In this document: positions 10,638-26,381 of the stretch, one piece after another
Numbering within the stretch: the first letter of the stretch is position 1
Layout: every line of letters begins with the position of its first letter
DNA from: Candidatus Bipolaricaulota bacterium
GTDB taxonomy: Bacteria > Bipolaricaulota > Bipolaricaulia > RBG-16-55-9
NCBI GenBank assembly: GCA_026982655.1
Contig: JALSGO010000165.1
Span: 35,032 to 99,031, forward strand
Reading direction: 5' to 3'
DNA: 64,000 bases
Translations under genes and position numbers: made by a program
The notes under the pieces: generated by a model
Told to the model about the DNA's origin: nothing
The model's database searches: none
What the model saw: only the letters and a program-made list of their open reading frames with translations

Positions 10638-11200
10638 CTTCTCTTCTCCTTTCCTTTGCTTTCACTTCACTTATGGATCACGACGGACATCGCGTTCACG
10701 CTGCGCCCCTCGCTCCGGCCCCATAGGCGGGATCACGGCACAAAAGACCGCCCGACTTGAGCTCAGCTCAGGCCTTCTGCCTCAGCTCCGGGGCACGAGC
10801 GAAAGGACGATTACTGGATCTGGGTCTTCTGGGACTTCGTACAGATCGGGCCTCGCAGGCCCAGGACGATATGTCCCCATCCAGTGGGGCTCGGAAGGAC
10901 AAAGACCGAGGAAGGGGAATAAAGACAGAGGAGAGATCCGGGGGAACCGACAATCTGCGTAGTACCGTCTGACCGTCTGAACACCACAAGACTCCCCCTT
11001 TCGCAAGGATGTGGGGACTCATTATACCTGGGGAGGATGGGCTTGTCAAAAGGGGGAGACGACTCGTCGAATCTGCCCCCTGATGGTACAATCCGAAAGG
11101 TTGTACGGCATCGTGGGACGGCGCAGGGGTATCGATGGGGTCTCTGGGGGTTGCGGAAGCGACGCGTCCGAAGGGCGATGACCAAGAGAAAGGGGTGTCA

Positions 11201-13630
11201 ATGAAGGCCGACACCGGCCCGCTCCGGCGAGCGCGGCTCCGGGTGCGGGTCTACGGCGCGGTGCAAGGTGTAGGCTTCCGCCCCTTTGTCTACCGTCTGG
11301 CTCAGGAGCTGGGTCTGACCGGATACGTCCAAAACTCTGCCTCCGGTGTCACGCTGGAGGTGGAGGGCCCCTTGGACCGGCTGGAGGCGTTTCGGGAGCG
11401 GCTCATCACGGAAGCTCCCCCTAACGCTGTGATCCACCGCGTTGAGTGTGAGTCCTGTGCGGTCCGGGGGGATTCCCGCTTCGTCATCCGCGCCAGCGAT
11501 GCAGAGGGGGGACAGACCGCCTTTGTGCTCCCCGATGTGGCGACTTGCTCCGATTGCTTGCGGGAGATCTTCGATCCCTCGGACCGAAGGTATCGCTATC
11601 CCTTCACAAACTGCACGAACTGCGGACCCCGCTTCACGATCCTAGAGGCCTTGCCTTATGACCGTTCCAACACGACCATGAAGGCGTTCTCCATGTGCGC
11701 CGCCTGCCGCGAGGAGTATGAAGATCCCCGAAATCGCCGGTTCCATGCTCAACCGAATGCCTGCCCGGCGTGCGGTCCGCATGTGGAGCTTTGGGGGCCC
11801 GATGGGGTCCCGCTTGCCCGGGAGGACGAGGCCCTGCGGCAGACGGTGGAGGCCCTGCGCAGCGGGCAGATCGTGGCGGTGAAGGGGTTGGGGGGCTTCC
11901 ACCTCTGGGTGGACGCTCGGGACGGCCGAGCCGTGTCGGAGCTGCGACGGCGCAAACGGCGAGGAGAGAAACCGTTTGCCCTGTTATATCCCTCCCTTGC
12001 GGTCTTGGAAGCCCATGCCTACCTCTCCCCGCTGGAGGCCGATCTCCTCCAGTCCCCTGAAGCTCCGATCGTGTTGCTGCGACGCACGAGCCGCGGAGAG
12101 CGGGAGATCGCCTCCGAGCAGATCGCTCCCTATACCCCGTACTTGGGAGCGATGCTCCCCTACACCCCACTCCATCATCTGTTGCTCCACGATCTGGGGA
12201 CTCCCGTGGTGGCCACCAGCGGCAACCTCGCAGAGGAGCCCCTTTGCATTGACGAGAGGGAGGCGCAAGAGCGCTTAGCGGGCATCGCGGACCTGTTCCT
12301 CGTGCACAACCGGCCCATCGCTCGTCCTTGTGATGACTCTGTCGTGCGGGTCATTGGGGGACGGCCCGTCCTCCTGAGGAGGGCTCGAGGGTACGCTCCC
12401 CTGCCCCTCACCCTGCCGGAGGCGTGGCCCTTGCCCCCCGTCTTGAAGGGCTCCGGAGCGCTGCTGGCCGTCGGTGGACACCTCAAGAACACCGTGGCTC
12501 TGGCGATCGGACGCCACGTCTTTTTGAGCCAACACGTCGGCGACCTCGACACGGCCTTGACTCGACGAGCGTTCCTGCAGGCGATACGCGACCTGACCGC
12601 GCTCTACCGGCGTGAGCCGTCGGGCGTGATTTGCGATGCCCATCCGGATTACGCCTCCACCCAACACGCCCGTCGGCTTGGGAAACCTCTCCAGCGGGTG
12701 CAGCACCACGTAGCCCACGTATGGGGCTGCGTGGCGGAGCACGACGTGGAGCTCCCGGCGCTGGGTGTCGCGTGGGACGGGACGGGTTACGGGCCCGATG
12801 GGACCGTCTGGGGAGGAGAGTTCTTCGTCCTCACCCCTCCGGGGCGGGCGGAAAGGGTGGCTCACCTGCGACGCTTCCCTTTGCCGGGGGGCGAGCAAGC
12901 CGTCCGGGAGCCCCGTCGTGCTGCTCTGGGGCTGCTGTACGCCCTGTGGGGGGATCGGGCCTTCGCTCGTCGCGACATCCCTACGCTCCGGGCCTTCTCG
13001 CCTCCGGAGCTCGAGGTCCTCCGCGGAATGCTCCGCAAGCGGGTGCGCTGCCCGGAGACCTCCAGCGCCGGCCGGCTCTTCGACGCGGTGGCTTCCCTAG
13101 CAGGGGTCCGACAGCGCACGAGCTTTGAAGGCCAAGCGGCGGTCGAGCTGGAGCATCGGGCGGAGCAGGTCTCCGCGCTGGCTCCCGACCTTCCCGAGGA
13201 GAACCTGCCTCGCTGGGGCTTCGCCCTCCTCCGCCGGGGAGGGATGTGGACCGTCGACTGGGAACCTTTCGTGATAGCCCTCCTAGGGGATCCCGAACGC
13301 CCGTCGGGGGAGCGCCGACCGAGAGCGGAGGAGATCGCTTGGGCGTTCCATCGCGCGTGTGTAGAGGCCATAGTCACGCTGTCTCGACAGATCGGTCTTC
13401 CTCGGGTGGTGCTGAGCGGCGGGTGCTTTCAGAACCGCCTGCTCACGGAATGGAGCCTCCGACGGTTGAAGGAGGAGGGAATAGACGCCTTCGTCCCCGA
13501 GCGGGTTCCCCCCGGCGACGGGGGCCTAGCGCTGGGCCAAGTCGCGGCGGCGATCTGGCAACTCACCCAACTCCCGTCCCGGCGCGGAGGAGGAGAGGAT
13601 GTGCCTAGCCGTCCCCGGACGGATCGTTGA
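11201..13630 (+). CDS. hypF: [NiFe]-hydrogenase maturation carbamoyltransferase HypF
   Basis: An acylphosphatase domain (VQGVGFRPFVYRLA) is followed by two CxxC...CxxC zinc-finger pairs, YrdC-like and Kae1-like domains. The start is trimmed to the ATG at 11201, which has an SD. Confidence 0.9.
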   Translation: MKADTGPLRRARLRVRVYGAVQGVGFRPFVYRLAQELGLTGYVQNSASGVTLEVEGPLDRLEAFRERLITEAPPNAVIHRVECESCAVRGDSRFVIRASDAEGGQTAFVLPDVATCSDCLREIFDPSDRRYRYPFTNCTNCGPRFTILEALPYDRSNTTMKAFSMCAACREEYEDPRNRRFHAQPNACPACGPHVELWGPDGVPLAREDEALRQTVEALRSGQIVAVKGLGGFHLWVDARDGRAVSELRRRKRRGEKPFALLYPSLAVLEAHAYLSPLEADLLQSPEAPIVLLRRTSRGEREIASEQIAPYTPYLGAMLPYTPLHHLLLHDLGTPVVATSGNLAEEPLCIDEREAQERLAGIADLFLVHNRPIARPCDDSVVRVIGGRPVLLRRARGYAPLPLTLPEAWPLPPVLKGSGALLAVGGHLKNTVALAIGRHVFLSQHVGDLDTALTRRAFLQAIRDLTALYRREPSGVICDAHPDYASTQHARRLGKPLQRVQHHVAHVWGCVAEHDVELPALGVAWDGTGYGPDGTVWGGEFFVLTPPGRAERVAHLRRFPLPGGEQAVREPRRAALGLLYALWGDRAFARRDIPTLRAFSPPELEVLRGMLRKRVRCPETSSAGRLFDAVASLAGVRQRTSFEGQAAVELEHRAEQVSALAPDLPEENLPRWGFALLRRGGMWTVDWEPFVIALLGDPERPSGERRPRAEEIAWAFHRACVEAIVTLSRQIGLPRVVLSGGCFQNRLLTEWSLRRLKEEGIDAFVPERVPPGDGGLALGQVAAAIWQLTQLPSRRGGGEDVPSRPRTDR

Positions 13631-13865
13631 ACTCCAGGAGGAAGGGCCGTTGGCCCGGCAGGGGCGCGTCGACTTCGGCGGCCTCGTCAAGACCGTGAAC
13701 TTGACGCTTGTCCCCGAGGCGCGGGTTGGGGACTACGTCTTGGTCCACGTGGGGATTGCGATCAGCGTGGTGGACGAGCGCGAAGCCCGACGAGTCCTGG
13801 AGTTCCTCCAGCAAGAAGCTCCCGAAGATCTGGAAGAGCTTCGGATCCCCGAGGAGGGAGGCTGA
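13599..13865 (+). CDS. hypC: hydrogenase maturation factor HypC
   Basis: The invariant N-terminus MCLAVPGRIVE is present. A GGAGGAGAGG SD precedes the gene, which overlaps the hypF 3' end by 32 nt. Confidence 0.9.
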   Translation: MCLAVPGRIVELQEEGPLARQGRVDFGGLVKTVNLTLVPEARVGDYVLVHVGIAISVVDEREARRVLEFLQQEAPEDLEELRIPEEGG

Positions 13866-13871
13866 GCTGAG

Positions 13872-15002
13872 ATGCGGTTCCTAGAGGAGTACCGTGATCG
13901 GCGGTGGGCCCAACGCTACGCCCGCCTGATCGCCCGGACCGTAACCCGTCCCTGGACCCTCATGGAAGTTTGTGGAGGGCAGACGCACGCCATTGTGCGC
14001 TTTGGAATTGATGAACTCCTGCCCGACGAGATCACCCTGGTCCACGGACCGGGATGCCCGGTCTGCGTCACGCCCGTGGAGATCTTGGACAAGGCCCTGT
14101 ACCTCGCAGCCCAGCCGGGGGTGATCTTCTGCTCGTTCGGGGACATGTTGCGGGTGCCGGGCAGCCAAGGCGACCTCCTCCGCGTAAAAGCACAGGGCGC
14201 AGATGTGCGCATCGTATACTCTCCCTTGGACGCGGTCCGCTTGGCCCAGCGCTATCCCGATCGCGAGGTCGTCTTCTTCGCGGTGGGCTTCGAGACCACC
14301 GCGCCGGCGAATGCCTTGGCGGTGCGGCAGGCGCACGCCCTGGGGCTGAAGAACTTCTCGCTGCTGGTGGCCCACGTCCTCGTCCCTCCCGCGATGGAAG
14401 CGATCCTGCGTTCTCCGGCCAACCGGGTCCAAGGGTTCCTCGCCGCAGGTCACGTGTGCACCGTGATGGGCTACGAGGAATACCGCCCACTCGCCCGCCG
14501 CTACCGGGTGCCCATCGTCGTAACGGGCTTCGAGCCCCTAGACCTCCTCCAAGGGATCTATCTCTGTGTGCGGCAGTTGGAGGAAGAACGCTTCGAGGTG
14601 GAGAACCAGTATGCACGATCGGTACGGCCGAAGGGCAACCGAGAGGCCCAACGACTGATCCGGGAGGTCTTCGAGGTCGTGCCCCGGAAGTGGCGGGGCA
14701 TGGGGGAGCTGCCCCGGAGCGGCTTGGGGCTGCGCGCCCCCTATCGGCAATACGACGCCGAGCACAAGTTCGCGCTGTACAGCTCCGGCTCCGATGAGCC
14801 GGAGGACTGCATCGCCGGGCTTGTCCTTCAAGGGATCAAGAAGCCTCCGGACTGCCCCGCCTTTGGGACCCGTTGTACCCCGGAGCATCCCTTGGGAGCT
14901 CCCATGGTCTCCTCCGAGGGGGCTTGTGCGGCGTACTATCGCTACCGCCGCCGTCCGTCCGAAGGCCACGGGCGCCGGGAGGAGGTGTCTGCCTCCGAAT
15001 GA
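13872..15002 (+). CDS. hypD: hydrogenase maturation factor HypD
   Basis: HypD motifs CGGQTH and GPGCPVC plus C-terminal Cys clusters are present. Confidence 0.9.
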
Positions 15003-16066
15003 CGGAACGGGAAGCTCGATTCTCCTGCCCCCTTCCCCGGGACGACTCCCCCCACGTCTTGCTGGCCCACGGAGGGGGAGGTCGCCTGATGGGGCGGCTC
15101 CTCGAAGGGATCGTATCGGCGCTGGGCGGCCCGCCGCTTGAGCATCGCCACGATGGAGCCGTCCTGGCCCTCCCCCTGGAGGGAGGGGACCGAGCGGCGT
15201 TCACCACCGACTCCTATGTGGTGAGCCCCCTCTTCTTCCCCGGCGGCGACATCGGAAAGCTCGCCGTTTACGGAACGGTGAACGACTTGGCCATGTGCGG
15301 CGCGCGCCCGGCCTACCTGAGCGTGGGGATGATCCTGGAGGAAGGCCTGCCTTGGGAGACGCTCGAGCGCGTGGTGGAATCGCTGCGAGAGGCTGCCGAC
15401 CGAGCTGGGGTCTACATCGTGACCGGCGACACGAAGGTCGTGGACAAGGGAAAGGGCGACGGCCTGTTCCTCAACACCGCGGGCTTGGGGATCGTGCCGT
15501 CGGGCGTAGAGGTCCGTCCTTCGGAGGTCCGGCCGGGAGACGTCGTGCTGCTCAGCGGGGACTTGGGACGCCACGGGATCGCCATCCTCGCCACCCGGGA
15601 AGGGCTGGAGTTCGAGACCGCCATCGAGAGCGACTGCGCTCCGCTGCACGAGCCGGTCCTCCGGCTCCTAGCCGAAGGGGTCGAGGTGCACTGCATGCGC
15701 GATCTGACCCGGGGAGGACTGGCCAGCGCGTTGCTGGAGATCGCGCAAAGCACTCAACTGCACATCGAGATCGAGGAGACCGCGATCCCCGTGCGGCCCG
15801 AGGTCCAGGCTGCCTGCGAGCTGCTGGGCCTCGATCCCCTCTATGTGGCGAACGAGGGGCGCTGGGTCACCTTCGTGCCCGAGGGGGAAGCGGAGCGCGC
15901 GTTGACCCTCTTAAGGGACTACCCCGTAAGCGCGGAAGCCTGCGCGATCGGTCGCGTCCTGCCCGCCTCGGAGGCCCTCGGCGGGCTCGTGACGCTGCGC
16001 ACCGCGATCGGGACAACCCGAACGGTGGACTGGCTAAGCGGCGAGCAGCTTCCCCGCATCTGCTAG
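14999..16066 (+). CDS. hypE: hydrogenase maturation factor HypE
   Basis: A PurM-like fold with a C-terminal PRIC is present. The start is trimmed to the ATG at 14999 (ATGA overlap with the hypD stop), which has a GGAGGAGG SD. Confidence 0.9.
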
Positions 16067-16086
16067 GGGGGGCCTTCATCCCCCCC
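16066..16086 (+). terminator. GC hairpin (GGGGGGG-CCTTCAT-CCCCCCC) directly after the hypE stop, with no U-tract
   Basis: A perfect 7-bp G/C stem starts in the TAG stop codon. The lack of a T-run makes intrinsic termination uncertain. Confidence 0.3.
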
Positions 16087-16153
16087 AGGTGCAATGACTC
16101 CCTTCGCGCTCTATACTGACCCCTCAGAGGGATAGGCGACCACAGAGGAGGCG

Positions 16154-17221
16154 TTGCCCATGTTCTACGCCGTCGTGCTCGCGGGGGGAAGCGGGACGCG
16201 CTTTTGGCCCAAAAGCCGCAAAGATCAGCCCAAACAGCTCTTGGACATCATCGGGACCAGCCCCCTGATCGCCCAGACCTTGGAACGCCTCGAGGGCCTG
16301 TTCACCCGGGAGCGCGTCCTGGTGGTCACCCAAGCCCGGCAGCTCGAGGGGGTCCGCAGGCACATCGACCTCCCGGAGGAGAACCTCCTCGGGGAACCCT
16401 ACTCCCGCAACACGGCGGCGGCCATCGGGTTGGCCGCCCTCGAGCTGAAGCGCCGCGAGGGCGAAGAGGCCGTCTTCGCCGTCCTCCCCTCCGATCACTA
16501 CATCGACGACCTCGACGCCTTCTTAAAGACGCTGCTCTTGGCCAAGGAGGTCGCCCGGATGGGCTTTCTGGTCACCATCGGCATCCGGCCCCGCTACCCC
16601 GAGACGGGCTACGGCTACCTCGAGCTGGGCGAGCCCCTCTTGGACCTGGGCTTCCAGGGCATCTATCACGTGAAGCGCTTCGTGGAGAAGCCCGACCTCC
16701 CCACCGCCGCCCGCTACGTCGAGCAGGGGACCTTCCTCTGGAACAGCGGGACGTTCGTCTGGCAGGTCCAGACCCTGCTGGAGGCAATCGCCCGCCACCT
16801 CCCCGATCTCCACCGGGGACTCCAGCGGATCGAGCAGGCGGACCACGACCCCGACGAGATCGAGCGCATCTACAAGGACCTCCCCGACATCAGCATCGAC
16901 TACGGGGTGATGGAGAAGGCGGACAACTGCGCCGTGGTCATCGGGGACTACGGCTGGAGCGACGTGGGCTCCTGGTCGGCTCTGGCCGAACTCCTGGAGA
17001 AGGACGAACGGGGGAACGTCCGGCGGGGCGAGGTCGTGGCGGTGGACTGCTCCAACTCCGTCTTGTACAGCGACGACGGGCTCATCGGCGCCTTGGGCCT
17101 GCGGGACATGGTCGTCGTATACTCCGGCGGGGCCGTCTTGGTCTGCCCCGTGGAGCGCTCCCAGGACGTCCGCAAAGTGGTGGAGAAGCTCAAGGAGCTG
17201 GGAAAGGAACGGTATCTCTAG
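16154..17221 (+). CDS. manC: mannose-1-phosphate guanylyltransferase (GDP-mannose pyrophosphorylase), no isomerase domain
   Basis: The N-terminus MFYAVVLAGGSGTRFWPKSR carries the nucleotidyltransferase G-loop. The C-terminal left-handed beta-helix region and a GAGGAGG SD are also present. Confidence 0.85.
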   Translation: MPMFYAVVLAGGSGTRFWPKSRKDQPKQLLDIIGTSPLIAQTLERLEGLFTRERVLVVTQARQLEGVRRHIDLPEENLLGEPYSRNTAAAIGLAALELKRREGEEAVFAVLPSDHYIDDLDAFLKTLLLAKEVARMGFLVTIGIRPRYPETGYGYLELGEPLLDLGFQGIYHVKRFVEKPDLPTAARYVEQGTFLWNSGTFVWQVQTLLEAIARHLPDLHRGLQRIEQADHDPDEIERIYKDLPDISIDYGVMEKADNCAVVIGDYGWSDVGSWSALAELLEKDERGNVRRGEVVAVDCSNSVLYSDDGLIGALGLRDMVVVYSGGAVLVCPVERSQDVRKVVEKLKELGKERYL

Positions 17222-17230
17222 CTCAAACCC

Positions 17231-19594
17231 ATGAAGCCAGGGGGGAAGCCGCGTTCGGCCCGTTGGGTGCGGAGGATCGCCTTCATCGGCGATTACCCCC
17301 CGCGCCGCTGCGGGATCGCGGCGTTTACCCACGACCTCTGCGAGGCGATCGCGGAGCAGTACCCCGACATCGACTGCTTCGCCGTCGCCGTCACGGACCG
17401 CGAGGAGGGGTACGACTATCCCCCCCGAGTCCGCTTCGAGATCCCCGAGGAGAACCTGGCCTCCTATCGACGGGCCGCGGAGTTCCTCAACACCAACCAC
17501 GTCGATCGGGTCTGCGTCCAGCACGAGTACGGCATCTACGGCGGCCCGGAGGGGCGCTACCTCTTGGCCCTCTTACACGAGCTGCACATGCCCACCGTCA
17601 CCACCCTCCACACGATCCTCAAGGAGCCCAACCCCGAGCAGCGGCACGTGCTCGAGGAGCTGGCCCGCCTCTCGGATCGCCTGGTGACCCTCAGCCGCAA
17701 GGGGGCCGAATTCCTCACGGAGATCTACGGGGTCCCCCCGGAGAAGATCGACCCCATCCCCCACGGCATCCCCGACATGCCCTTCGTGGACCCCAACTTC
17801 TACAAGGACCAGTTCGGGGTCGAGGGGCGCACCGTCTTGCTGACCTTCGGCCTCCTCTCCCGGAACAAGGGGATCGAATACGTATTGGACGCGCTCCCTG
17901 CGATCGTGAAGCGCCACCCCGAGGTGGTGTACATCGTGCTCGGCCCCACCCATCCCGGCGTGGTCCGCCACGAGGGGGAGGTCTACCGCCGCTCCCTCGA
18001 GGAGCGCGTCGCGAAGCTCCGCCTCGAGGAGCACGTGATCTTCGACGCCCGCTTCGTGAGCTTAGAGGAGCTGATCGCCTACATCGGGGCCGCCGATGTC
18101 TATATCACGCCCTACCCCAACAAGGAGCAGATCTCCTCGGGGACGCTCTCCTACGCCCTGGGGGCGGGCAAGGCGATCGTCTCGACCCCCTATTGGTACG
18201 CCGAGGAGCTGCTGGCCGACGGGCGCGGCGTGCTGGTGCCCTTCCGCGACTCGGAGGCCCTCGCCGAGGCCGTCTGTGAGCTTTTGGAGAACGAGACGGA
18301 GCGGCACGCGATGCGCAAGCGCGCGTATCTCTTCGGTCGGGAGATGATCTGGCCCAAGGTGGCCCAACGGTATCTGGAGAGCTTCAAGCGGGCGCTGGAG
18401 GAGCGGCTGCGGTCGCCTCGGCCTCGGGTCTCTTTGAGAACCCCAAGCTCCCGGGAGCTTCCGCCCCTCAAGCTCGACCACCTCCTGCGCCTCACGGACG
18501 ACACGGGCCTGCTGCAGCACGCCTCCTTTGGGGTTCCCCACTACCAAGAGGGCTACACCACGGACGACAACGCGCGGGCCCTCTTGCTGGCGGTCACCCT
18601 GGAGCAGCTGGGCGAGCCCTCGGGGAACGCGCAGCACGCGCAAGGGGTTCAAGCCCGCGTCCGGGAGCTGGCCCCTCGGTATTTGGCCTTCCTGCGCTAC
18701 GCCTTTGACCCGGGGACGGGCCGCTTTCGGAACGTCTTGGGGTATGACCGTCGCTGGCGGGAGGAGGTCGGGTCCGAGGACAGCCACGGACGGGCGCTCT
18801 GGGCGCTGGGGGCCGTGCTCCACCGCTCGCACCGCCACGATCTTCGGGGCCTGGCGGCCTGGCTCTTCGAGGGGGCCCTCCCCGCGGCCCTTGAGCTCAA
18901 GAGCCCTCGGGCGTGGGCCTTCGGTCTGCTGGGGCTGTGGGAGTACCTCCAAGCGTTCCCCGGGAGCCGCGAGGCCCTGCGCGCCGCCCAGGAGCTGGGC
19001 GAGCGGCTCTTTAAGCTTTACGAGAGGAACGCATCGAAGGAGTGGCCCTGGTTCGAAGATCAACTCACGTACGACAACGCGACGCTCCCCCACGGGCTGC
19101 TGCTCGCCGGGGAGGTCCTCAAGCGCTCGGAGATGAGGGACGCGGCACTCGAAGCCCTGGAGTGGCTGGTGGGCGTTCAAAAGGCCGAGGAGGGGCATTT
19201 TGTCCCCATCGGCAATCGGGGGTTCTACCCGCGGGGGGGCGAGCGGGCGCGCTTCGATCAGCAGCCCATCGAAGCTTATGCAACCGTGGCCGCGGCCCTG
19301 ACGGCCCACCGGCTCACGGGGAAGGGACGGTGGCACGAGGAGGCCCACCGGGCGTTTGAGTGGTTCTTGGGGCGAAACGACCTGGGCCTGCCGCTGTACG
19401 ACCCGCAGACGGGGGGCTGCCGGGATGGGCTTCAGCCCGACGGCGTCAACGAGAACCAGGGGGCCGAGTCGACGTTGGCGTTTCTCCTCTCGCGGGTGGA
19501 GCTGGCACGACACGAGGACACTCATCGCCTGGCGCTCGTGGACGCACGCGTACAACCCTCTAACGGGAACGGGAACGGAAAGGGGGAAGACTAG
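17231..19594 (+). CDS. two-domain protein with an N-terminal GT4 glycosyltransferase and a C-terminal (alpha/alpha)6 glycosidase-like domain
   Basis: The first roughly 390 aa have a GT-B/GT4 fold (EX7E-like ...FGLSMVE-type motif near ...SSGTLSYALGAGKAIV). The last roughly 390 aa resemble six-hairpin glycosidase or debranching-enzyme C-terminal domains (DDNARALLLAV...). The ATG at 17231 lacks a clear SD, so the start is uncertain. Confidence 0.65.
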   Translation: MKPGGKPRSARWVRRIAFIGDYPPRRCGIAAFTHDLCEAIAEQYPDIDCFAVAVTDREEGYDYPPRVRFEIPEENLASYRRAAEFLNTNHVDRVCVQHEYGIYGGPEGRYLLALLHELHMPTVTTLHTILKEPNPEQRHVLEELARLSDRLVTLSRKGAEFLTEIYGVPPEKIDPIPHGIPDMPFVDPNFYKDQFGVEGRTVLLTFGLLSRNKGIEYVLDALPAIVKRHPEVVYIVLGPTHPGVVRHEGEVYRRSLEERVAKLRLEEHVIFDARFVSLEELIAYIGAADVYITPYPNKEQISSGTLSYALGAGKAIVSTPYWYAEELLADGRGVLVPFRDSEALAEAVCELLENETERHAMRKRAYLFGREMIWPKVAQRYLESFKRALEERLRSPRPRVSLRTPSSRELPPLKLDHLLRLTDDTGLLQHASFGVPHYQEGYTTDDNARALLLAVTLEQLGEPSGNAQHAQGVQARVRELAPRYLAFLRYAFDPGTGRFRNVLGYDRRWREEVGSEDSHGRALWALGAVLHRSHRHDLRGLAAWLFEGALPAALELKSPRAWAFGLLGLWEYLQAFPGSREALRAAQELGERLFKLYERNASKEWPWFEDQLTYDNATLPHGLLLAGEVLKRSEMRDAALEALEWLVGVQKAEEGHFVPIGNRGFYPRGGERARFDQQPIEAYATVAAALTAHRLTGKGRWHEEAHRAFEWFLGRNDLGLPLYDPQTGGCRDGLQPDGVNENQGAESTLAFLLSRVELARHEDTHRLALVDARVQPSNGNGNGKGED

Positions 19595-20796
19595 TGGCTG
19601 CAGTGCTCATCATCCCGGAGCGGAACGAGGGAGAAGCGCCCCTCTTCGTGGCGGAGCAGGGGTTGCGGGCGCAGCCCATCAAGGCCGTCTTCCTCGTCGA
19701 CGGCTGGTCCTCCGACGACACGTTCGTGAAGCTCTCGCGCGCGATCCCGGAGATGCAGCTGCGCCATCCCAACCGTCGCATCGAGCTCTTTCGGAGCTAT
19801 CTTAGGGCCACGGGCAAGGGGGGCGCGATGGTGACGGGGCTCCAGCGCGCCTTGGCCGCCGGATACGATCCGATCGTCTTTTTAGACGGGGACATCCAAT
19901 CCGTGACCCCGCGTTGGTGTGAGCTCCTCCTGGAGGCGCTCCACGAGCAGGGGGCCGCGATGGCCCGGGGGTACTTCGACCGCAGCCCCTTGGACGCCCA
20001 GATCACCCGCCACGTCACCCGGCCCCTGATGGCCCTCTACTTCCCCGAGGGACGCCGCATCCAACAGCCCTTAGGGGGAGAACTCGCCCTGACCGCGGAG
20101 CTGGCCCGCTTCTTGCTCGAGGGCCAGATGATCGACCCGCCCCATCACTGGGGGATCGACACCTTCTTCACTGTGAACACCGTGGTGGAGGGCTTCCCCG
20201 TCGTGGAGGTCTACCTCACCCAGAAGACCCACAAGCCCAAGAGCCTGACGCAGCTGCGGCAGATGTTCATCGAGTGCTTCGACGAGATGTGCCGCCAGAT
20301 CGACTTCCACGGGCGGCTGGAGCGGGTCCCCGAGCTGGGGGAGATCTCCGTCACCGTGGTGCGCCCGGAGCGCCCGCCTGAGCGGGTGGGGCAAGACGTC
20401 CGGACCCTGCAGTACGTCAAGCTCGAGGAGCAGCGGGAGCGCTTCTTCACCTTCGTGCGGGGGCTGCGCCACCCTCAGGAGCGGCTGGAGGAGCTGGAGG
20501 TCTCCCCCGAGCTGCGGGCGTTGGTGCTCGCGCTCTTCGACCCCGAGCAGTTCGAGAAGCGCAGCTCCGAACTCAACCCCGAGACGTGGGTTCCCCTTCT
20601 GGATCAGCTGGCCCGCGGGTACATCCGGCGGAACTACCACGTAGTGTATCACGACGTCCTCTTCGCCTGCTGGCAGCTGCGGGCCCTGGCGTTCGCCCAC
20701 CACGAAGCCGAAAGCTTTGAGAAGGCCGAAGAGGCCACGGAACGTCAAGCCCAGTACGCCTACGAGTACGGGGAGCGGTATCGTGCTTCTCGCTGA
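19594..20796 (+). CDS. GT78-like glycosyltransferase, putative mannosylglycerate synthase homologue
   Basis: A DxD-like FLDGDIQ motif is present. The motifs ...IQQPLGGELAL... and ...WGIDTFFTVNT... match my recollection of Rhodothermus-type mannosylglycerate synthase (about 400 aa). The GTG start at 19594 overlaps the upstream stop and has an AAAGGGGGAAG SD. Confidence 0.55.
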   Translation: MAAVLIIPERNEGEAPLFVAEQGLRAQPIKAVFLVDGWSSDDTFVKLSRAIPEMQLRHPNRRIELFRSYLRATGKGGAMVTGLQRALAAGYDPIVFLDGDIQSVTPRWCELLLEALHEQGAAMARGYFDRSPLDAQITRHVTRPLMALYFPEGRRIQQPLGGELALTAELARFLLEGQMIDPPHHWGIDTFFTVNTVVEGFPVVEVYLTQKTHKPKSLTQLRQMFIECFDEMCRQIDFHGRLERVPELGEISVTVVRPERPPERVGQDVRTLQYVKLEEQRERFFTFVRGLRHPQERLEELEVSPELRALVLALFDPEQFEKRSSELNPETWVPLLDQLARGYIRRNYHVVYHDVLFACWQLRALAFAHHEAESFEKAEEATERQAQYAYEYGERYRASR

Positions 20797-20799
20797 AGA

Positions 20800-21033
20800 A
20801 TGGCCGAACCCTATCCTCCGCTGCCGGACGGCAGGGAATTTGACCCCGAAGAGTGGGAGCCGATAGCGGAACATACCGAACCCGCCCGCGGAAGGCACAA
20901 GCGCGGATGGAGCATTCAAACCGTATATCGCCACAAGCGTACCGGAGAGATCGTCACTCGACATCGGATTGAGAAAGCGGGTAAGATCGTCCATGACCAC
21001 TTTCGGCCCGGAGGTGCGAAGACTCGACCATGA
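20800..21033 (+). CDS. hypothetical 77-aa basic protein
   Basis: The ATG lies 3 nt after the upstream stop and the gene ends in an ATGA overlap with the next ORF. Codon usage matches its neighbours. No recognisable family. Confidence 0.45.
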   Translation: MAEPYPPLPDGREFDPEEWEPIAEHTEPARGRHKRGWSIQTVYRHKRTGEIVTRHRIEKAGKIVHDHFRPGGAKTRP

Positions 21034-21326
21034 GCCCTACGCCCAAGCTCCCGACGATCGACGAGCTGAAGCACGAGGTCCTTGAGGTGCTCGCCAACGA
21101 TTATGAAGACCTGGAGCAGCTGAGGGACCTCTTGGGCAAAGTCCCTTCCCAGCGATTGCGGGAGGCCCTCTGGGAGCTCATTCAAGAGGGCTTGGTGGAG
21201 TGCCTGAGGCCCTCGAGGACGGCCCTGCATCCCGTGTCGAACCCGAACCCTTCGGAGCTTGCTACCTATTGGTTCGCACTGACCGAGGAGGGCGAACGGC
21301 GCTTAGAACCGTCTTCTCAGCCCTAG
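21030..21326 (+). CDS. hypothetical 98-aa protein with winged-helix-like features
   Basis: It is translationally coupled by an ATGA overlap. The helical N-terminus and the C-terminal ...ATYWFALTEEGERRL resemble a winged HTH (wHTH) wing. Confidence 0.45.
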   Translation: MSPTPKLPTIDELKHEVLEVLANDYEDLEQLRDLLGKVPSQRLREALWELIQEGLVECLRPSRTALHPVSNPNPSELATYWFALTEEGERRLEPSSQP

Positions 21327-21352
21327 CGTTTGATCTCGTTGCAAGCAGGTCC

Positions 21353-22366
21353 ATGCGCATCGGGATGCTGGCGCCCATCGCCTGGCGGGTCCCGCCCCGG
21401 CACTACGGCCCCTGGGAGCGGGTCGTCTCCCTCCTCACGGAGGGGCTCGTCGAGCGCGGGGTAGAGGTCACGCTGTTCGCCACCGCCGACTCCCTCACCC
21501 GAGCGCGGCTGGTGGCCGTCTGCCCCCGCCCCTACGAGGAGGATCCCGAGATCGACCCCAAGGTCTGGGAGGGGCTCCACATCGCGGAGGCCTTCGAGCG
21601 CGCCCGCGCCGGGGAGTTCGACCTCTTGCACAACCACTTCGACTTCCTGCCCCTCACGTACAGCGGTCTGGTGGACATCCCCGTGCTCACCACGATCCAC
21701 GGCTTCTCCTCGGAGAAGATCCTGCCCGTCTACGAGAAGTACAACGGACAGGTCTATTACGTCTCGATCAGCCACGCCGACCGCCACCCGAAGCTCGACT
21801 ACGTCGCCACGGTCTATCACGGCATCCCCGTCGAGGAGTTCACCCTGCGCCGCGAGCGCGGGGACTATCTGCTCTTCTTCGGGAGGATTCATCCCGACAA
21901 GGGGGCTGCGGAGGCCATCGAGGTCGCCCGGCGCTCCGGGAGGAGGCTGGTGATCGCGGGCATCGTCCAAGACGAGAAGTACTTCGAGGAGCGGGTGAAG
22001 CCTCATCTCAACGGAAACATTGAGTACATAGGCTCCGTCGGGGGTCGGGAGCGGGACAAACTCCTCGGGGGCGCGTACGCTCTACTGCACCTCATCAACT
22101 TTGACGAACCCTTCGGGCTCAGCATGGTGGAGGCGATGGCCTGCGGCACGCCCGTGATCGCCCGCCCGCGCGGGGCGGTCCCCGAGGTCGTAAGAGACGG
22201 GGAGACCGGCTTCCTCGTCCACACGGTGGACGAGGCCGTCGAGGTCCTCCCCCGGGTGGCGCAGCTCGACCGCGGGAGGATCCGCCGACACGTGGAGGAG
22301 CGCTTCCGCGCCGAGCGGATGGTGGAGGACTACCTCCGGGTCTACCGGCAGATCCTGGGCTCATGA
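21353..22366 (+). CDS. GT4 family glycosyltransferase
   Basis: A GT-B fold with the EX7E region (DEPFGLSMVEAMACGTPV) is present. The start is trimmed to the ATG at 21353 (MRIGMLAP). The ORF-track GTG at 21200 would add 51 non-homologous residues. Confidence 0.8.
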   Translation: MRIGMLAPIAWRVPPRHYGPWERVVSLLTEGLVERGVEVTLFATADSLTRARLVAVCPRPYEEDPEIDPKVWEGLHIAEAFERARAGEFDLLHNHFDFLPLTYSGLVDIPVLTTIHGFSSEKILPVYEKYNGQVYYVSISHADRHPKLDYVATVYHGIPVEEFTLRRERGDYLLFFGRIHPDKGAAEAIEVARRSGRRLVIAGIVQDEKYFEERVKPHLNGNIEYIGSVGGRERDKLLGGAYALLHLINFDEPFGLSMVEAMACGTPVIARPRGAVPEVVRDGETGFLVHTVDEAVEVLPRVAQLDRGRIRRHVEERFRAERMVEDYLRVYRQILGS

Positions 22367-23580
22367 CGGAGTTCGTCCTGGGGATCAACTACTGGCCCAT
22401 CTCGAGCGCGATGGGCTGGTGGAAGCGCTTTCCGCCGGAGGAGGTGGAGCGGGACTTCGCCCGCATTCGGAGCGCGGGATTGGAGATCGTACGCATCTTC
22501 TTGCTGTGGGAAGACTTTCAGCCCGCCCCTCAGGAGATCTCCGAAGGAGCCCTTCATCGTCTTCAGACGACGGCCCATATCGCGAGCGCTCACGGGCTGA
22601 AACTGCTGATCACGCTCTTTACGGGTCACATGAGCGGGGCCAATTGGCTCCCCGCGTGGGCCCTCTCCTCCCGATCGGGGGCGGGGGCAAACGCCTCGCA
22701 GCGATTTCCGACGATCTCGCAGGGGCGCGTCGGGGATGCCCTTCCCCGCAACTGGTACACGGACGAGGAGGTACAGCGAGCACAGGAAGTCCTGGCCGAG
22801 CGCGTGGGCGAGGAGCTGAAAGACCACCCCGCCGTCTGGGCCTGGGACCTGGGGAACGAGAACTCGAACGTCTGCGTGCCGCCCTCGCGGGAGCTGGGGC
22901 TGCGATGGCTTAAGCGCATGGCCGGGGCGCTCCGCCGCGCGGGCGCGCGGCAGCCCCTCACGCTGGGACTGCACATGGAAGACTTAGAAGAGGACCGCCG
23001 TCTGGGCCCCGCCGAGGCGGCTCCAGTCTGCGATTTCCTCTCCATGCACGGGTACCCGGTGTACGTCTCCTGGGCCGACGGCCCCAAGGACCCCTGGGTG
23101 CTCCCCTTCTTGGGGATGATCACCCACTGGCTCGGCGGCGGAAAGCCCGTCTTGTTCGAGGAGTTCGGGGCACCCACCCGACTTCCCTCCGAGGTTCCTA
23201 CCGAATCGCTCCCCGTACCCCTTCTTACCGAGGAGGAGGCAGCAGGGCTCATCGCACAGGCCCTCACGCTCTTGAGGCGCTTTGGGATGGTGGGCGCGCT
23301 CCTCTGGTGCTACGGGGACTACGATCCCGCCCTCCGGCACGATCCCCCCTTCGATCGCGCGCCCCACGAGCTGCGCTTCGGACTCTGGCGCGCCGACGGC
23401 TCGGAGAAGCCCGCCGTGGGCGTCGTCCGCCGCTTCGCCCAAACCCCCTCCCGGAACCGCGAACCCGAGGGAGGCCCGGACACGGGTTGGATTGACATCC
23501 CGCCCGAGAGGTTTTATACAGATCCCCGTGCGCATCTCGTGCGCCTCTACCGGCGCTTCCGGGAGCGCTTTTCGTCTTGA
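22363..23580 (+). CDS. GH-A clan TIM-barrel glycoside hydrolase (GH5/GH113-like, possible beta-mannanase)
   Basis: GINYWP, WDLGNENS (acid/base Glu) and VLFEEFG (nucleophile Glu) motifs are present. The gene has an ATGA overlap with the upstream GT4. Confidence 0.65.
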   Translation: MTEFVLGINYWPISSAMGWWKRFPPEEVERDFARIRSAGLEIVRIFLLWEDFQPAPQEISEGALHRLQTTAHIASAHGLKLLITLFTGHMSGANWLPAWALSSRSGAGANASQRFPTISQGRVGDALPRNWYTDEEVQRAQEVLAERVGEELKDHPAVWAWDLGNENSNVCVPPSRELGLRWLKRMAGALRRAGARQPLTLGLHMEDLEEDRRLGPAEAAPVCDFLSMHGYPVYVSWADGPKDPWVLPFLGMITHWLGGGKPVLFEEFGAPTRLPSEVPTESLPVPLLTEEEAAGLIAQALTLLRRFGMVGALLWCYGDYDPALRHDPPFDRAPHELRFGLWRADGSEKPAVGVVRRFAQTPSRNREPEGGPDTGWIDIPPERFYTDPRAHLVRLYRRFRERFSS

Positions 23581-23616
23581 GCCAAACCACGAGCACCGGA
23601 GACGAGGAGGCCGAGG

Positions 23617-24597
23617 ATGAGGACCACCACGAATCGCCGTTATGAGACGCTCTTTCACCGCCACGAGCGAAATCCCATCCTGACGGCGGCGGACTGGCCC
23701 TATCCCGTCAACTCCGTCTTCAACGCCGGGGCGACCCTCCTGCCCGACGGCACCACGCTCCTGTTGTGTCGGGTGGAGGACCGCCGCGGCCACTCCCACC
23801 TCTGCGCCGCCCGCTCCCGAAACGGGGTGGACGGCTGGAAGATCGACCCCGAGCCCACCCTCCTGCCCGACCCCGAACGCCACCCCGAGGAGCTGTGGGG
23901 CATCGAAGACCCCCGGATCACCTACGTGCCCGAGCTGGAGAAGTACGCCGTGGTGTACACGGCCTACTCCCGCAGCGGTCCCGCGGTCGCGCTGGCTTTG
24001 ACCCAAGACTTTCGACACTTCGAGCGCTGCGGCGTGATCATGCCCCCGGAGGACAAGGACGCCGCTTTGCTGCCGCGGCGCATCCGGGATCGCTGGGCGC
24101 TCATCCACCGGCCTGTGGGCCCGATGGGGGCCCACATCTGGGTTTCGTACTCGCCGGACCTCACCCACTGGGGGGAGCAGAAGCTCGTGCTGGAGACCCG
24201 CCGCGGCGGGTGGTGGGACTCCGAGCGCATCGGCTTGAGCCCGCCGCCCCTCGAGACCCCCGAAGGGTGGCTCATCATCTACCACGGCGTCCGGCGGACG
24301 GTCTCGGGGGCCATCTACCGCCTGGGATTGGCGCTGTTGGACCTTGAGAAGCCCGAGAAATGCTTATTGCGCAGCGACGACTGGGTCTTCGGCCCCGAGG
24401 AGCCCTACGAGCGCTTCGGGGACGTGAACAACGTGGTGTTCCCCTGCGGCTACGTCCTCGAGCCCGACGGCGACACCCTGCGGCTCTACTACGGCGCGGC
24501 GGACACCTGCATCGCGCTGGCTACCGGAAGCGTCCGGGCGCTCTTGGGGTGGCTCAAGCGCCACGGTCGGGAGCCGGTGATCCCTCCGGCCCTTTGA
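23617..24597 (+). CDS. GH130 family beta-mannoside phosphorylase/hydrolase
   Basis: NPIL...NSVFNAGA...GIEDPRITYV...IIYHGV motifs are characteristic of GH130 five-bladed propeller enzymes. Confidence 0.8.
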   Translation: MRTTTNRRYETLFHRHERNPILTAADWPYPVNSVFNAGATLLPDGTTLLLCRVEDRRGHSHLCAARSRNGVDGWKIDPEPTLLPDPERHPEELWGIEDPRITYVPELEKYAVVYTAYSRSGPAVALALTQDFRHFERCGVIMPPEDKDAALLPRRIRDRWALIHRPVGPMGAHIWVSYSPDLTHWGEQKLVLETRRGGWWDSERIGLSPPPLETPEGWLIIYHGVRRTVSGAIYRLGLALLDLEKPEKCLLRSDDWVFGPEEPYERFGDVNNVVFPCGYVLEPDGDTLRLYYGAADTCIALATGSVRALLGWLKRHGREPVIPPAL

Positions 24598-25438
24598 GAT
24601 CCCGGAGCCGGTGGATCGCCAGCAGCAAAACCCCTACCGCGAGGAGGACGACGGGCCAGGGATACAGCCCCATCACCACGTCCATAGGGGTGACGCCGGG
24701 CTCGGCCTGCCAATAGGCCGCCTCCACGGTGCTCCAGAGGTTGTTCAACGCGTGGGCGACGATGGCGGGATACAGGCTTCCCGTGCGCACCACGAGCCAC
24801 GCCAGCCAGAGGCCCGCAGGGAACGTGAGGAGCACGTGCAAAGGGTCGATGTGCATAAGGGCGAAGAGCAGGGCGCTTAAGCCCATGGCCGCGGCGGGGG
24901 AGTACCGGGAGCGGAAGCCCGCCAGGATGAGCCCGCGGAAGGCCAGTTCCTCGCTGACCCCCGGACCTACGCTCACGGCCAAGGCGTACACGAGAAAGCT
25001 TCCCAGGCCCGTGAAGCGAGAGAGCCGCACGAGCTCTTGGAGGTTCTCGGAGGCGAGCTCCGGCGCGATCCGCAGGAGCAGGGCTCCGAGCTGGGCCACC
25101 ACCACCCCGAGGGCGATCATCCCTATCGGGCCCCACCAATACGCCGTCCGGGGGGCCGGACGGAGGTAGAGCGCCTCCCGATACGGGAAGCGTCCCATGC
25201 TCGCGAACGCCAGAGTAGCCCCTACGCTCACCAGCGCTTGGAGGGCGATGAGTAGCGCGTTCGTCACTTGGGAGTCCGCCTCCAGCGGGATGCCCAGCAG
25301 CTCCGACAAGAACACCAAAGCGAAGGCGGACAGGAAAAGCACCCCGATGAGGACGAAGAAGAACCCCACCGCGTGACGGGGCTGGGGGAGGCGGGTCTCC
25401 GTCACCTTACGATCGTCCTCCGGAAGCCGAGGCGTCAT
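24554..25438 (-). CDS. CPBP family intramembrane metalloprotease (CAAX protease/Abi)
   Basis: EELAFRG and HALNN motifs are present within multiple TM helices. The start is trimmed to the ATG at 25438, which has an AAGGAG SD. Confidence 0.7.
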   Translation of the reverse strand: MTPRLPEDDRKVTETRLPQPRHAVGFFFVLIGVLFLSAFALVFLSELLGIPLEADSQVTNALLIALQALVSVGATLAFASMGRFPYREALYLRPAPRTAYWWGPIGMIALGVVVAQLGALLLRIAPELASENLQELVRLSRFTGLGSFLVYALAVSVGPGVSEELAFRGLILAGFRSRYSPAAAMGLSALLFALMHIDPLHVLLTFPAGLWLAWLVVRTGSLYPAIVAHALNNLWSTVEAAYWQAEPGVTPMDVVMGLYPWPVVLLAVGVLLLAIHRLRDLKGPEGSPAPDRGA

Positions 25439-25502
25439 CGCATTTCCACTCCTTGGGGGCGAGGCCCTAGATCCATGGGCGTGTTGTCCCTTATGATTAA
25501 GA

Positions 25503-26381
25503 ATGGGCATGACCTTGCGCAAGAGCGGGTTGCGGGTTGGACTGGGTCTGCTGGCGCTCGTGCTGTTGGCGATGGGGCTTTCGAACCTCACGCTCCAGCC
25601 GGGCCACCCCTTCGCCGTCGGGGGAGCTCCGCCCGAGGCTGGAGAAACAAAGCCCGTAACGCCCTGGACGCCCGATCTCAGCGAGCTGGGGAAGGTTCTG
25701 CTGGCCGTGCTCATCTGGGTCCTCTTCCCTGCTTCGGTGATCTATTTTCTCATCTCGCCGGAGGCCCGACGGCGCGTGCTACGCGATCTGCTCTGGGTCG
25801 TGGGCACGATGGTCGTGCTCTACTTCTTCATGAGGGGGTTCGCCCGCCGGCACCTCGGGGGGGAGTCCGCCGTCGAGACCCCTGGGGAGGTCTTGCCTCC
25901 CGTCCCGCCGGAGTTCGTCGTCTCGCCGGGGGAGTGGATCACGCATCCGCCGGAGTGGCTCGTCCTCCTGGTGAGCCTGCTCTTTCTGGGCGGGCTCTCC
26001 TTAGGGATCTTCCTCCTCTGGCGGGCGCTCCGCCCCGCGCCGCAGACCGAACCGCTCCCTCGGCTGGCGGAGGAGGCCGAAAGCGCTCTCAGGGAGCTGC
26101 GGGCCGGTGGGGATCTGCGCGACGTCGTGCTGCGGTGCTACCGCGAGATGGCCCGCGTTCTCCAAGAGGAGCGGGGCCTGCGCCGCCCGAGGGCGATGAC
26201 CCCGCGGGAGTTCGAGCGCCGCCTCCGGGAAGCGGGCTTGGCCGAGCGGCCCGTAAGCCGACTCACCCGGCTCTTCGAGCGCGTCCGCTATGGAGGGCAC
26301 CGCCCGGATGCCCGCGAGGAACGGGAGGCCCAAGAGTGCCTCGAGGAGATCGCCGCCGCCTGCCGGAGGGGATCCTCTTGA
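25503..26381 (+). CDS. DUF4129 domain membrane protein
   Basis: An N-terminal signal/TM segment and three TM segments precede a C-terminal MTPREFERRL...LFERVRYGGHRPD motif typical of DUF4129. Confidence 0.6.
   Translation: MGMTLRKSGLRVGLGLLALVLLAMGLSNLTLQPGHPFAVGGAPPEAGETKPVTPWTPDLSELGKVLLAVLIWVLFPASVIYFLISPEARRRVLRDLLWVVGTMVVLYFFMRGFARRHLGGESAVETPGEVLPPVPPEFVVSPGEWITHPPEWLVLLVSLLFLGGLSLGIFLLWRALRPAPQTEPLPRLAEEAESALRELRAGGDLRDVVLRCYREMARVLQEERGLRRPRAMTPREFERRLREAGLAERPVSRLTRLFERVRYGGHRPDAREEREAQECLEEIAAACRRGSS

Follow-up and report, generated by a model that had tools for sequence, protein, structure and literature searches.

A GT4 glycosyltransferase fused to an uncharacterised six-hairpin domain and paired with a GH130 phosphorylase-type gene: a candidate module for intracellular mannose-containing glycans

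We analysed a 64,000-nucleotide stretch of a Candidatus Bipolaricaulota bacterium genome (GenBank assembly GCA_026982655.1, contig JALSGO010000165.1, positions 35,032 to 99,031 of the forward strand; hereafter the window, in whose own numbering positions are given), in which an open reading frame (ORF) at 17231..19594 on the plus strand encodes, from ATG to TAG, a 787-residue protein that joins a GT4 glycosyltransferase to an (alpha/alpha)6, or six-hairpin, domain. By the ORF list, the translation and the homologues it is a genuine fusion gene: its GT4 domain, of GT-B type, occupies residues ~15-395 (17273..18415), a variable inter-domain linker residues ~396-412 (18416..18466), and the six-hairpin domain (below, the barrel) residues ~413-775 (18467..19555), the last belonging to an uncharacterised family that has a homologue in YPO2471 (PDB 7TEM). 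The annotation label "glycosyl transferase family 1" conceals this second half of the protein. Two long ORFs that overlap the gene, at 16204..18279 on the plus strand and 18062..19555 on the minus strand, were dismissed as high-GC artefacts because of the 66% G+C content and because homology backs the 787-residue frame, which has thousands of homologues in a 90%-clustered database. The 90%-identity cluster to which the fusion belongs includes members of 814 residues, 27 more than the window copy; a longer form is ruled out in the window because an in-frame TAG, the stop codon of the preceding manC-type gene, lies 9 nt upstream of the ATG.

The two-part architecture proposed in an earlier note, made from the letters of this DNA, is borne out by Pfam matches in the first half, to Glyco_transf_4 (residues 28-180, E 2e-14, 54.4 bits against a cut-off of 28.5) and Glycos_transf_1 (residues 197-366, E 1.1e-19, 71 bits against a cut-off of 26.4), and by the predicted (alpha/alpha)6 barrel in the second. 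NCBIfam matches to the fusion were confined to the GT4 part and fell far below their cut-offs. The GT4 half has the two Rossmann domains of a GT-B fold, and a full-length AlphaFold model (pLDDT 83, pTM 0.58) consists of a GT-B domain, a low-confidence linker at residues ~400-405 and a helical domain. In the orthologue alignment the mean frequency of the top residue is 0.50 in the linker versus 0.71-0.76 in the two domains, and 76 orthologues are on average 62% identical to the GT4 domain and 58% to the barrel, the linker being variable. GT4 and barrel are under equally strong selection, which makes it likely that each half has a function.

A relative was found in at least 586 species in a scan of one genome per species, and the neighbours of the fusion in the window were compared by tblastn with the best 80 of these loci, each of which encodes the full-length fusion at 53-69% identity. 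A GH130 gene was present in 75 of the 80. Its counterpart in the window, at 23617..24597 on the plus strand, is of the beta-mannoside phosphorylase type (Pfam Glyco_hydro_130, PF04041, E 3.5e-56); 62 loci carry a GH130 that is 47-85% identical to it and is in nearly all of them the next gene downstream, and 13, mainly from Verrucomicrobiota, carry a different GH130 of ~485 residues. Four of the five loci lacking GH130 lie on contigs that end at or just past the fusion, which leaves a single true exception (L061). The long GH130 was seen in L042, L051, L062, L069, L071, L072 (10294-11745), L074, L075, L077 and L078; its first ~250 residues have no Pfam match, and the Glu/Lys signature described below is still kept. 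At locus L012 (7974-11201) the GT4, six-hairpin and GH130 domains are joined in one ORF of 1,075 residues; multimodular GH130 proteins in CAZy have been reported as only GH130-GT81 and GH130-GH130 (PMC7660257). At L082 (865-4127) the module is instead split into adjacent genes for a GT4 of 391 residues, a six-hairpin protein of 351 and a GH130 of 324. Every other gene family is found in 17 of the 80 loci at most; those that do come back are Crp/Fnr and LuxR-type response regulators, a sensor kinase, OmpA and GroEL, perhaps a sign of a regulon for stress or persistence. From the GH130 linkage, the L012 fusion and the L082 split we therefore take the functional unit to be GT4 plus barrel plus GH130.

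The window GH130 fits the family model and has both the catalytic Asp and the basic residues of the phosphate site. Overall it is nearest to TM1225 and other GH130_2 beta-1,4-mannoside phosphorylases (PDB search, E 2.7e-57), and in alignment with UhgbMP its D98 corresponds to the catalytic Asp D104, and R165, H223 and Y234 to R168, H231 and Y242. Across 60 partner GH130s, the long type included, E97, D98, R100, K147, R165, H223 and Y234 are at least 98% conserved, with D98, R100, K147 and R165 strictly invariant and E97 present in 59. The pair E97/K147 aligns with E136/K184 of Uhgb_MS, a beta-1,2 enzyme, and differs from the Tyr/Arg found in beta-1,4 enzymes; these two positions reportedly set the linkage specificity, Glu/Lys being typical of beta-1,2/1,3 enzymes (PMC12814180). 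NCBIfam equivalog cut-offs were not reached by the window protein (211 versus 550 and 190 versus 450), the best sub-threshold models being for beta-mannobiose phosphorylase, one of them explicitly beta-1,2. On account of Glu97/Lys147, the partner GH130 is therefore expected to be a beta-1,2 or beta-1,3 mannoside phosphorylase; enzymes of this type were also reported to have weak GDP-mannose-dependent transferase activity (PMC12814180).

The window fusion is an ordinary member of a very large, unstudied family. Its C-terminal half, used as query, retrieved at least 6,208 proteins from the 90%-clustered database at E <=1e-3 and matched 5,100 clusters of a 50%-clustered library, 1,187 of them at E <=1e-30. 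Most complete matches have ~745-800 residues with the domain at ~400-750, and hence are the same fusion. The rarity that the earlier note had implied does not hold against these more than 5,000 clusters at 50% identity and the 586 or more species. Carriers of the module comprise hundreds of species from soil, sediment and hot springs in more than a dozen phyla. The 80 loci derive from Chloroflexota, Acidobacteriota, Bacteroidota/Ignavibacteria, Verrucomicrobiota, Planctomycetota, Myxococcota, Elusimicrobia, Fibrobacteria, Zixibacteria, KSB1, Leptospira, some Alphaproteobacteria and one metagenome-assembled genome (MAG) of Promethearchaeota; the nearest relative among the matches listed, at 69% identity, is from a Chloroflexota MAG. 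The Promethearchaeota MAG (Lokiarchaeon CR_4; L077, MBAA01000113.1) has a full-length fusion of 53% identity with a long-type GH130, either by lateral transfer or as a binning artefact.

When the C-terminal 387 residues were modelled alone from a more diverse alignment (pLDDT 94.5, pTM 0.92), the predicted helices, eleven of them long and one short, were arranged as an (alpha/alpha)6 barrel, six inside and six outside. This model and a Foldseek match to 7TEM (E 9e-15) uphold the six-hairpin fold suspected in the earlier note. The note had also suggested a debranching-enzyme affinity, and in this the family assignment failed: GDE_C and GH63 gave no family-model match at E up to 10, and the nearest structural neighbours belong elsewhere. 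Residues 400-787 match nothing in Pfam, even at E 10, and have no NCBIfam match. Among solved structures, all methods put YPO2471 of Yersinia pestis nearest (profile E 2.3e-12), with significant similarity in both sequence and structure over the whole six-hairpin domain. PDB 7TEM is a structural-genomics entry, "putative exported protein YPO2471", for which a literature search found no publication; neither Pfam nor NCBIfam has a model of the barrel family, whose sole representative is this one unannotated crystal structure. YPO2471, which bears the name of an exported protein, differs from the fusion in standing alone with no GT4 domain, and it is without D676, Q678, E681 and C730 of the fused family, whereas D445/D446, R449, R521, Y614, N616, D732, N742 and E746 are common to both. 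Other six-hairpin enzymes, namely GH76 (alpha-1,6-mannanase), GH9 and the mycobacterial hydrolase MmpH, share only 7-15% identity with the barrel in the structure search, among whose matches is also the cyclisation domain (8WY1) of cyclic beta-1,2-glucan synthase (Cgs). In two further proteins the six-hairpin domain lies N-terminal to another domain, a GFO/IDH/MocA oxidoreductase (P0150) and an alpha/beta-hydrolase esterase (P0153), each a true fusion or a gene-call merge.

Conservation across phyla reaches at least 97% at about 70 of 348 barrel positions. Over 77 full-length orthologues they include D445, D446, R449, R521, R560, W605, W607, Y614, N616, D676, Q677, Q678, E681, W711, N716, D732, N742 and E746. 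In the predicted model the conserved residues gather at the N-termini of every second helix, which is where the active site of six-hairpin enzymes lies. The Asp pair early and the Glu late in the barrel recall GH9 and MmpH, a likeness of chain position rather than of superposition; in MmpH, D47, D50 and E262 were picked for mutagenesis (PMC9883506). Judged from this residue pattern, hydrolase or transglycosylase chemistry is the most likely for the barrel, which, if catalytic, would found a new CAZy family.

Epimerase chemistry is a serious rival, one that we think unlikely. The barrel would then be a sugar 2-epimerase/isomerase of AGE type, switching the reducing-end sugar between gluco and manno configuration in a disaccharide that the GH130 would phosphorolyse or synthesise, and mannan catabolism offers a model for such a pairing in cellobiose-2-epimerase and mannosylglucose-phosphorylase. 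With the AGE superfamily (cellobiose 2-epimerase, N-acylglucosamine 2-epimerase, mannose isomerase and YihS) the barrel has no detectable sequence kinship: PF07221 (GlcNAc_2-epim) has no match in it at Pfam E up to 10, and AGE homology was dismissed on hhalign probabilities of 3% against E. coli YihS and 32% against a 111-sequence YihS-family profile, the latter in a hairpin-shifted register. By helix order, not superposition, the catalytic H176, H248 and H383 of YihS would correspond to R560, Y614/N616 and N742/E746, none of them His; the invariant H417 and H430 sit elsewhere in the barrel. Moreover, the nearest homologue, YPO2471, is named as exported, an odd site for a sugar epimerase.

Less probable still, the barrel might be non-catalytic, serving instead in glycan binding, oligomerisation or regulation, and would present the acceptor to the GT4 or dock the GH130. 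Its catalytic residues are predicted only, the orientation of the two domains is uncertain at the pTM of the full-length model, and a specific binding site would equally give a conserved pocket. Against this stand the extent of the conservation, which takes in several carboxylates at the canonical active-site end, and the occurrence of the domain on its own (in exported YPO2471 and as a separate gene at L082) or joined to other catalytic domains.

Between manC and GH130 the genes of the window are co-directional, and their stops and starts overlap or nearly touch. The manC-type gene for mannose-1-phosphate guanylyltransferase (16154..17221, plus strand; Pfam NTP_transferase and ManC_GMP_beta-helix), which ends 9 nt before the ATG of the fusion, directly follows a complete hydrogenase-maturation set, hypF-hypC-hypD-hypE (11135..16066, plus). 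On the other side of the fusion, a gene for a GT78-like, mannosylglycerate-synthase-like glycosyltransferase (19594..20796, plus; Pfam MGS_GT E 3e-27; PDB 2BO4 E 5.7e-26) has a GTG start that overlaps the fusion's stop codon by 1 nt. The sole sizeable gap between manC and GH130 is filled by two small overlapping plus-strand ORFs of 77 and 98 residues (20800..21033 and 21030..21326), the second with a weak match to DUF5805 (E 0.0024). A second, stand-alone GT4 follows (21353..22366, plus; Pfam Glycos_transf_1 E 2.3e-24), the start of which, judged from its sequence, is probably the ATG at 21353 (Met52 of the ORF 21200..22366) and not the GTG at 21200. Next, in an ATGA overlap, comes a gene for a GH5-like protein (22363..23580, plus) resembling beta-mannosidases and mannanases and lacking a signal peptide; it has PDB matches, over its first ~100 residues only, to the endo-beta-mannanase 7BOB (E 1.7e-17) and to GH5_18 beta-mannosidases, and its Pfam scores for GH5 and GH42 are narrowly under the cut-offs. 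Past the GH130 lie unrelated housekeeping genes, and a gene for an Rce1-like CPBP membrane protease (24554..25714, minus) runs towards the GH130 gene and shares 44 nt with the 3' end of the latter. A promoter and terminator scan of 15900..25200 gave nothing informative. Inspected by eye, the translated cluster proteins show no N-terminal signal sequence, and a cytoplasmic location is therefore likely.

Most of this row is peculiar to the window, whose oddity lies in the three extra genes between fusion and GH130 and in the manC ahead of the fusion. By tblastn, manC and the GT78-like, GH5-like and hyp genes occur in none of the 80 related loci, and homologues of the second GT4 lie between fusion and GH130 in two (72% identity in L019, 64% in L034). 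We accordingly rejected manC and the GT78-like gene as conserved partners of the fusion; manC, the GT78-like gene, the second GT4 and the GH5-like gene are local or occasional accessory genes. The earlier note had rightly placed the fusion between manC and a GT78 enzyme, but the functional link that it drew to them gives way to the link with GH130, found in 75 of the 80 loci.

Altogether, our analyses lead us, tentatively and with somewhat less than even confidence, to a cytoplasmic module of GT4, six-hairpin domain and GH130 that builds and recycles an intracellular mannose-containing glycan, with the fusion as its larger half. The GT4 domain would transfer an alpha-linked hexose to a small acceptor or a growing glycan, its donor most likely being mannose from GDP-mannose, which in this organism the adjacent ManC would make. 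The tethered barrel would bind the same glycan in its conserved acidic pocket (D445/D446, D676, D732 and E746, with Trp, Asn and Arg residues) and would cleave or rearrange it, perhaps to trim it, to generate primers or to transglycosylate. The GH130 could then reversibly add or remove beta-mannose, probably in beta-1,2 or beta-1,3 linkage, by way of phosphate and mannose-1-phosphate, and ManC would turn mannose-1-phosphate back to GDP-mannose, allowing mannose to cycle between glycan, mannose-1-phosphate and GDP-mannose without loss. On balance, the cell would make an intracellular mannose-containing oligosaccharide or glycoside, as a reserve or for protection against stress, and turn it over at low energetic cost. 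The window's version of the module is enlarged by manC, the mannosylglycerate-synthase-like glycosyltransferase, the second GT4 and the GH5-like beta-mannosidase. The idea put forward earlier, of an enzyme that both builds a glycan and processes it, is in our overall judgement right, the chemistry of the barrel being conjectural. The near-obligatory pairing with GH130 suggests that abundant environmental bacteria have a cytoplasmic mannoside pathway yet to be described, and the fusion and its GH130 could serve as an enzyme source for the synthesis of beta-mannosides, which is chemically hard.

Several points weigh against such a module. The activities of all its members are predictions from sequence. 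A retaining GT4 gives alpha-linkages and GH130 acts on beta-mannosides, and therefore the two cannot be the forward and reverse reactions of one bond. Since manC is not conserved, the argument for a GDP-mannose donor comes from this window and the GH130 link only. A literature search found no publication on the family of GT4 and six-hairpin fusions, its pairing with GH130 included, which, together with the absence of a Pfam or NCBIfam model for the barrel, is in keeping with the earlier remark that enzymes of this kind are poorly characterised. The donor site of the GT4 domain, finally, is atypical. In PimA, the Glu pair of the EX7E motif touches the donor sugar and ribose, and the G-R...K-G motif binds phosphate. 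Alignment with PimA and the orthologues located neither motif in the GT4 domain: the first EX7E Glu falls at position 299 (Ala/Glu299-Gln300), which is Ala in 57 of 77 orthologues, the second at Tyr308, present in 75 of 77, and Arg196 of PimA at Gly207/Leu208, and only Lys213 (K202 in PimA) and Glu326 are retained. With both EX7E Glu residues and the Arg gone, the donor may therefore not be an ordinary NDP-sugar, and the predicted substrate of this domain may be unusual. Invariant in the family are R25-x-C27-G28-I29, T240-H241-P242 and K314.

This atypical site would also fit a GT4 domain that is a retaining phosphorylase like the GT4 trehalose phosphorylases, sharing alpha-mannose-1-phosphate with the inverting GH130 so that alpha- and beta-mannosides are interconverted without nucleotide sugars. 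We consider this quite improbable, although the family has lost the residues that touch the nucleotide sugar in PimA-type GT4 enzymes, has kept Lys213 and gained the invariant T-H-P motif and Lys314, and does not have manC as a conserved neighbour, and although GT4 is known to include retaining phosphorylases (PMC8950772). Very improbable is a debranching-like or GH63-like barrel trimming a joint product of the GT4 and GT78-like enzymes on a mannosylglycerate-type acceptor, for, while manC, the fusion and the mannosylglycerate-synthase-like gene form a tight row in the window, GH63 and debranching enzymes have the same six-hairpin fold, and GH130-GT81 fusions in CAZy tie GH130 to glycosylglycerate-type glycosyltransferases (PMC7660257), the barrel matches neither family model and both neighbours are missing from the related loci.

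The cytoplasmic GT4, six-hairpin and GH130 module that we favour has partial parallels among known systems. In mycobacteria, the GT4 enzyme ManT and the (alpha/alpha)6 hydrolase MmpH recycle intracellular mannan (PMC9883506). They differ from the module in being separate proteins and in having methyltransferases in place of the GH130 partner, and each domain of the fusion has closer structural relatives than these. Thermoanaerobacter sp. X-514 has, at Teth514_1785-1790, a cluster of manC, a GT4, a GH5 and two GH130s that are beta-1,2-mannoside phosphorylases (PMC4264767); unlike the window module, it includes an ABC importer and has been read as catabolic salvage (PMC4264767). Its order of manC, GT4 and a hypothetical gene parallels that of manC, GT4 and barrel in the window, and Teth514_1785 and Teth514_1786 might conceivably be a split version of the fusion, with Teth514_1785 as the detached barrel. 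On a bolder reading, which we hold to be a long shot, the triad would be an unrecognised machine that makes and sizes an intracellular beta-mannan or mannoside reserve on the logic of Cgs, with the barrel as a new glycoside hydrolase or transglycosylase family; the product could resemble Leishmania mannogen or be cyclic, and the atypical GT4 might use a non-nucleotide donor. Cgs itself consists of a GT84 transferase, an (alpha/alpha)6 cyclisation domain and a GH94 phosphorylase. Cgs and the module are thus alike in combining a transferase, a six-hairpin domain and an inverting phosphorylase, which, as at L012, may all reside in one polypeptide.

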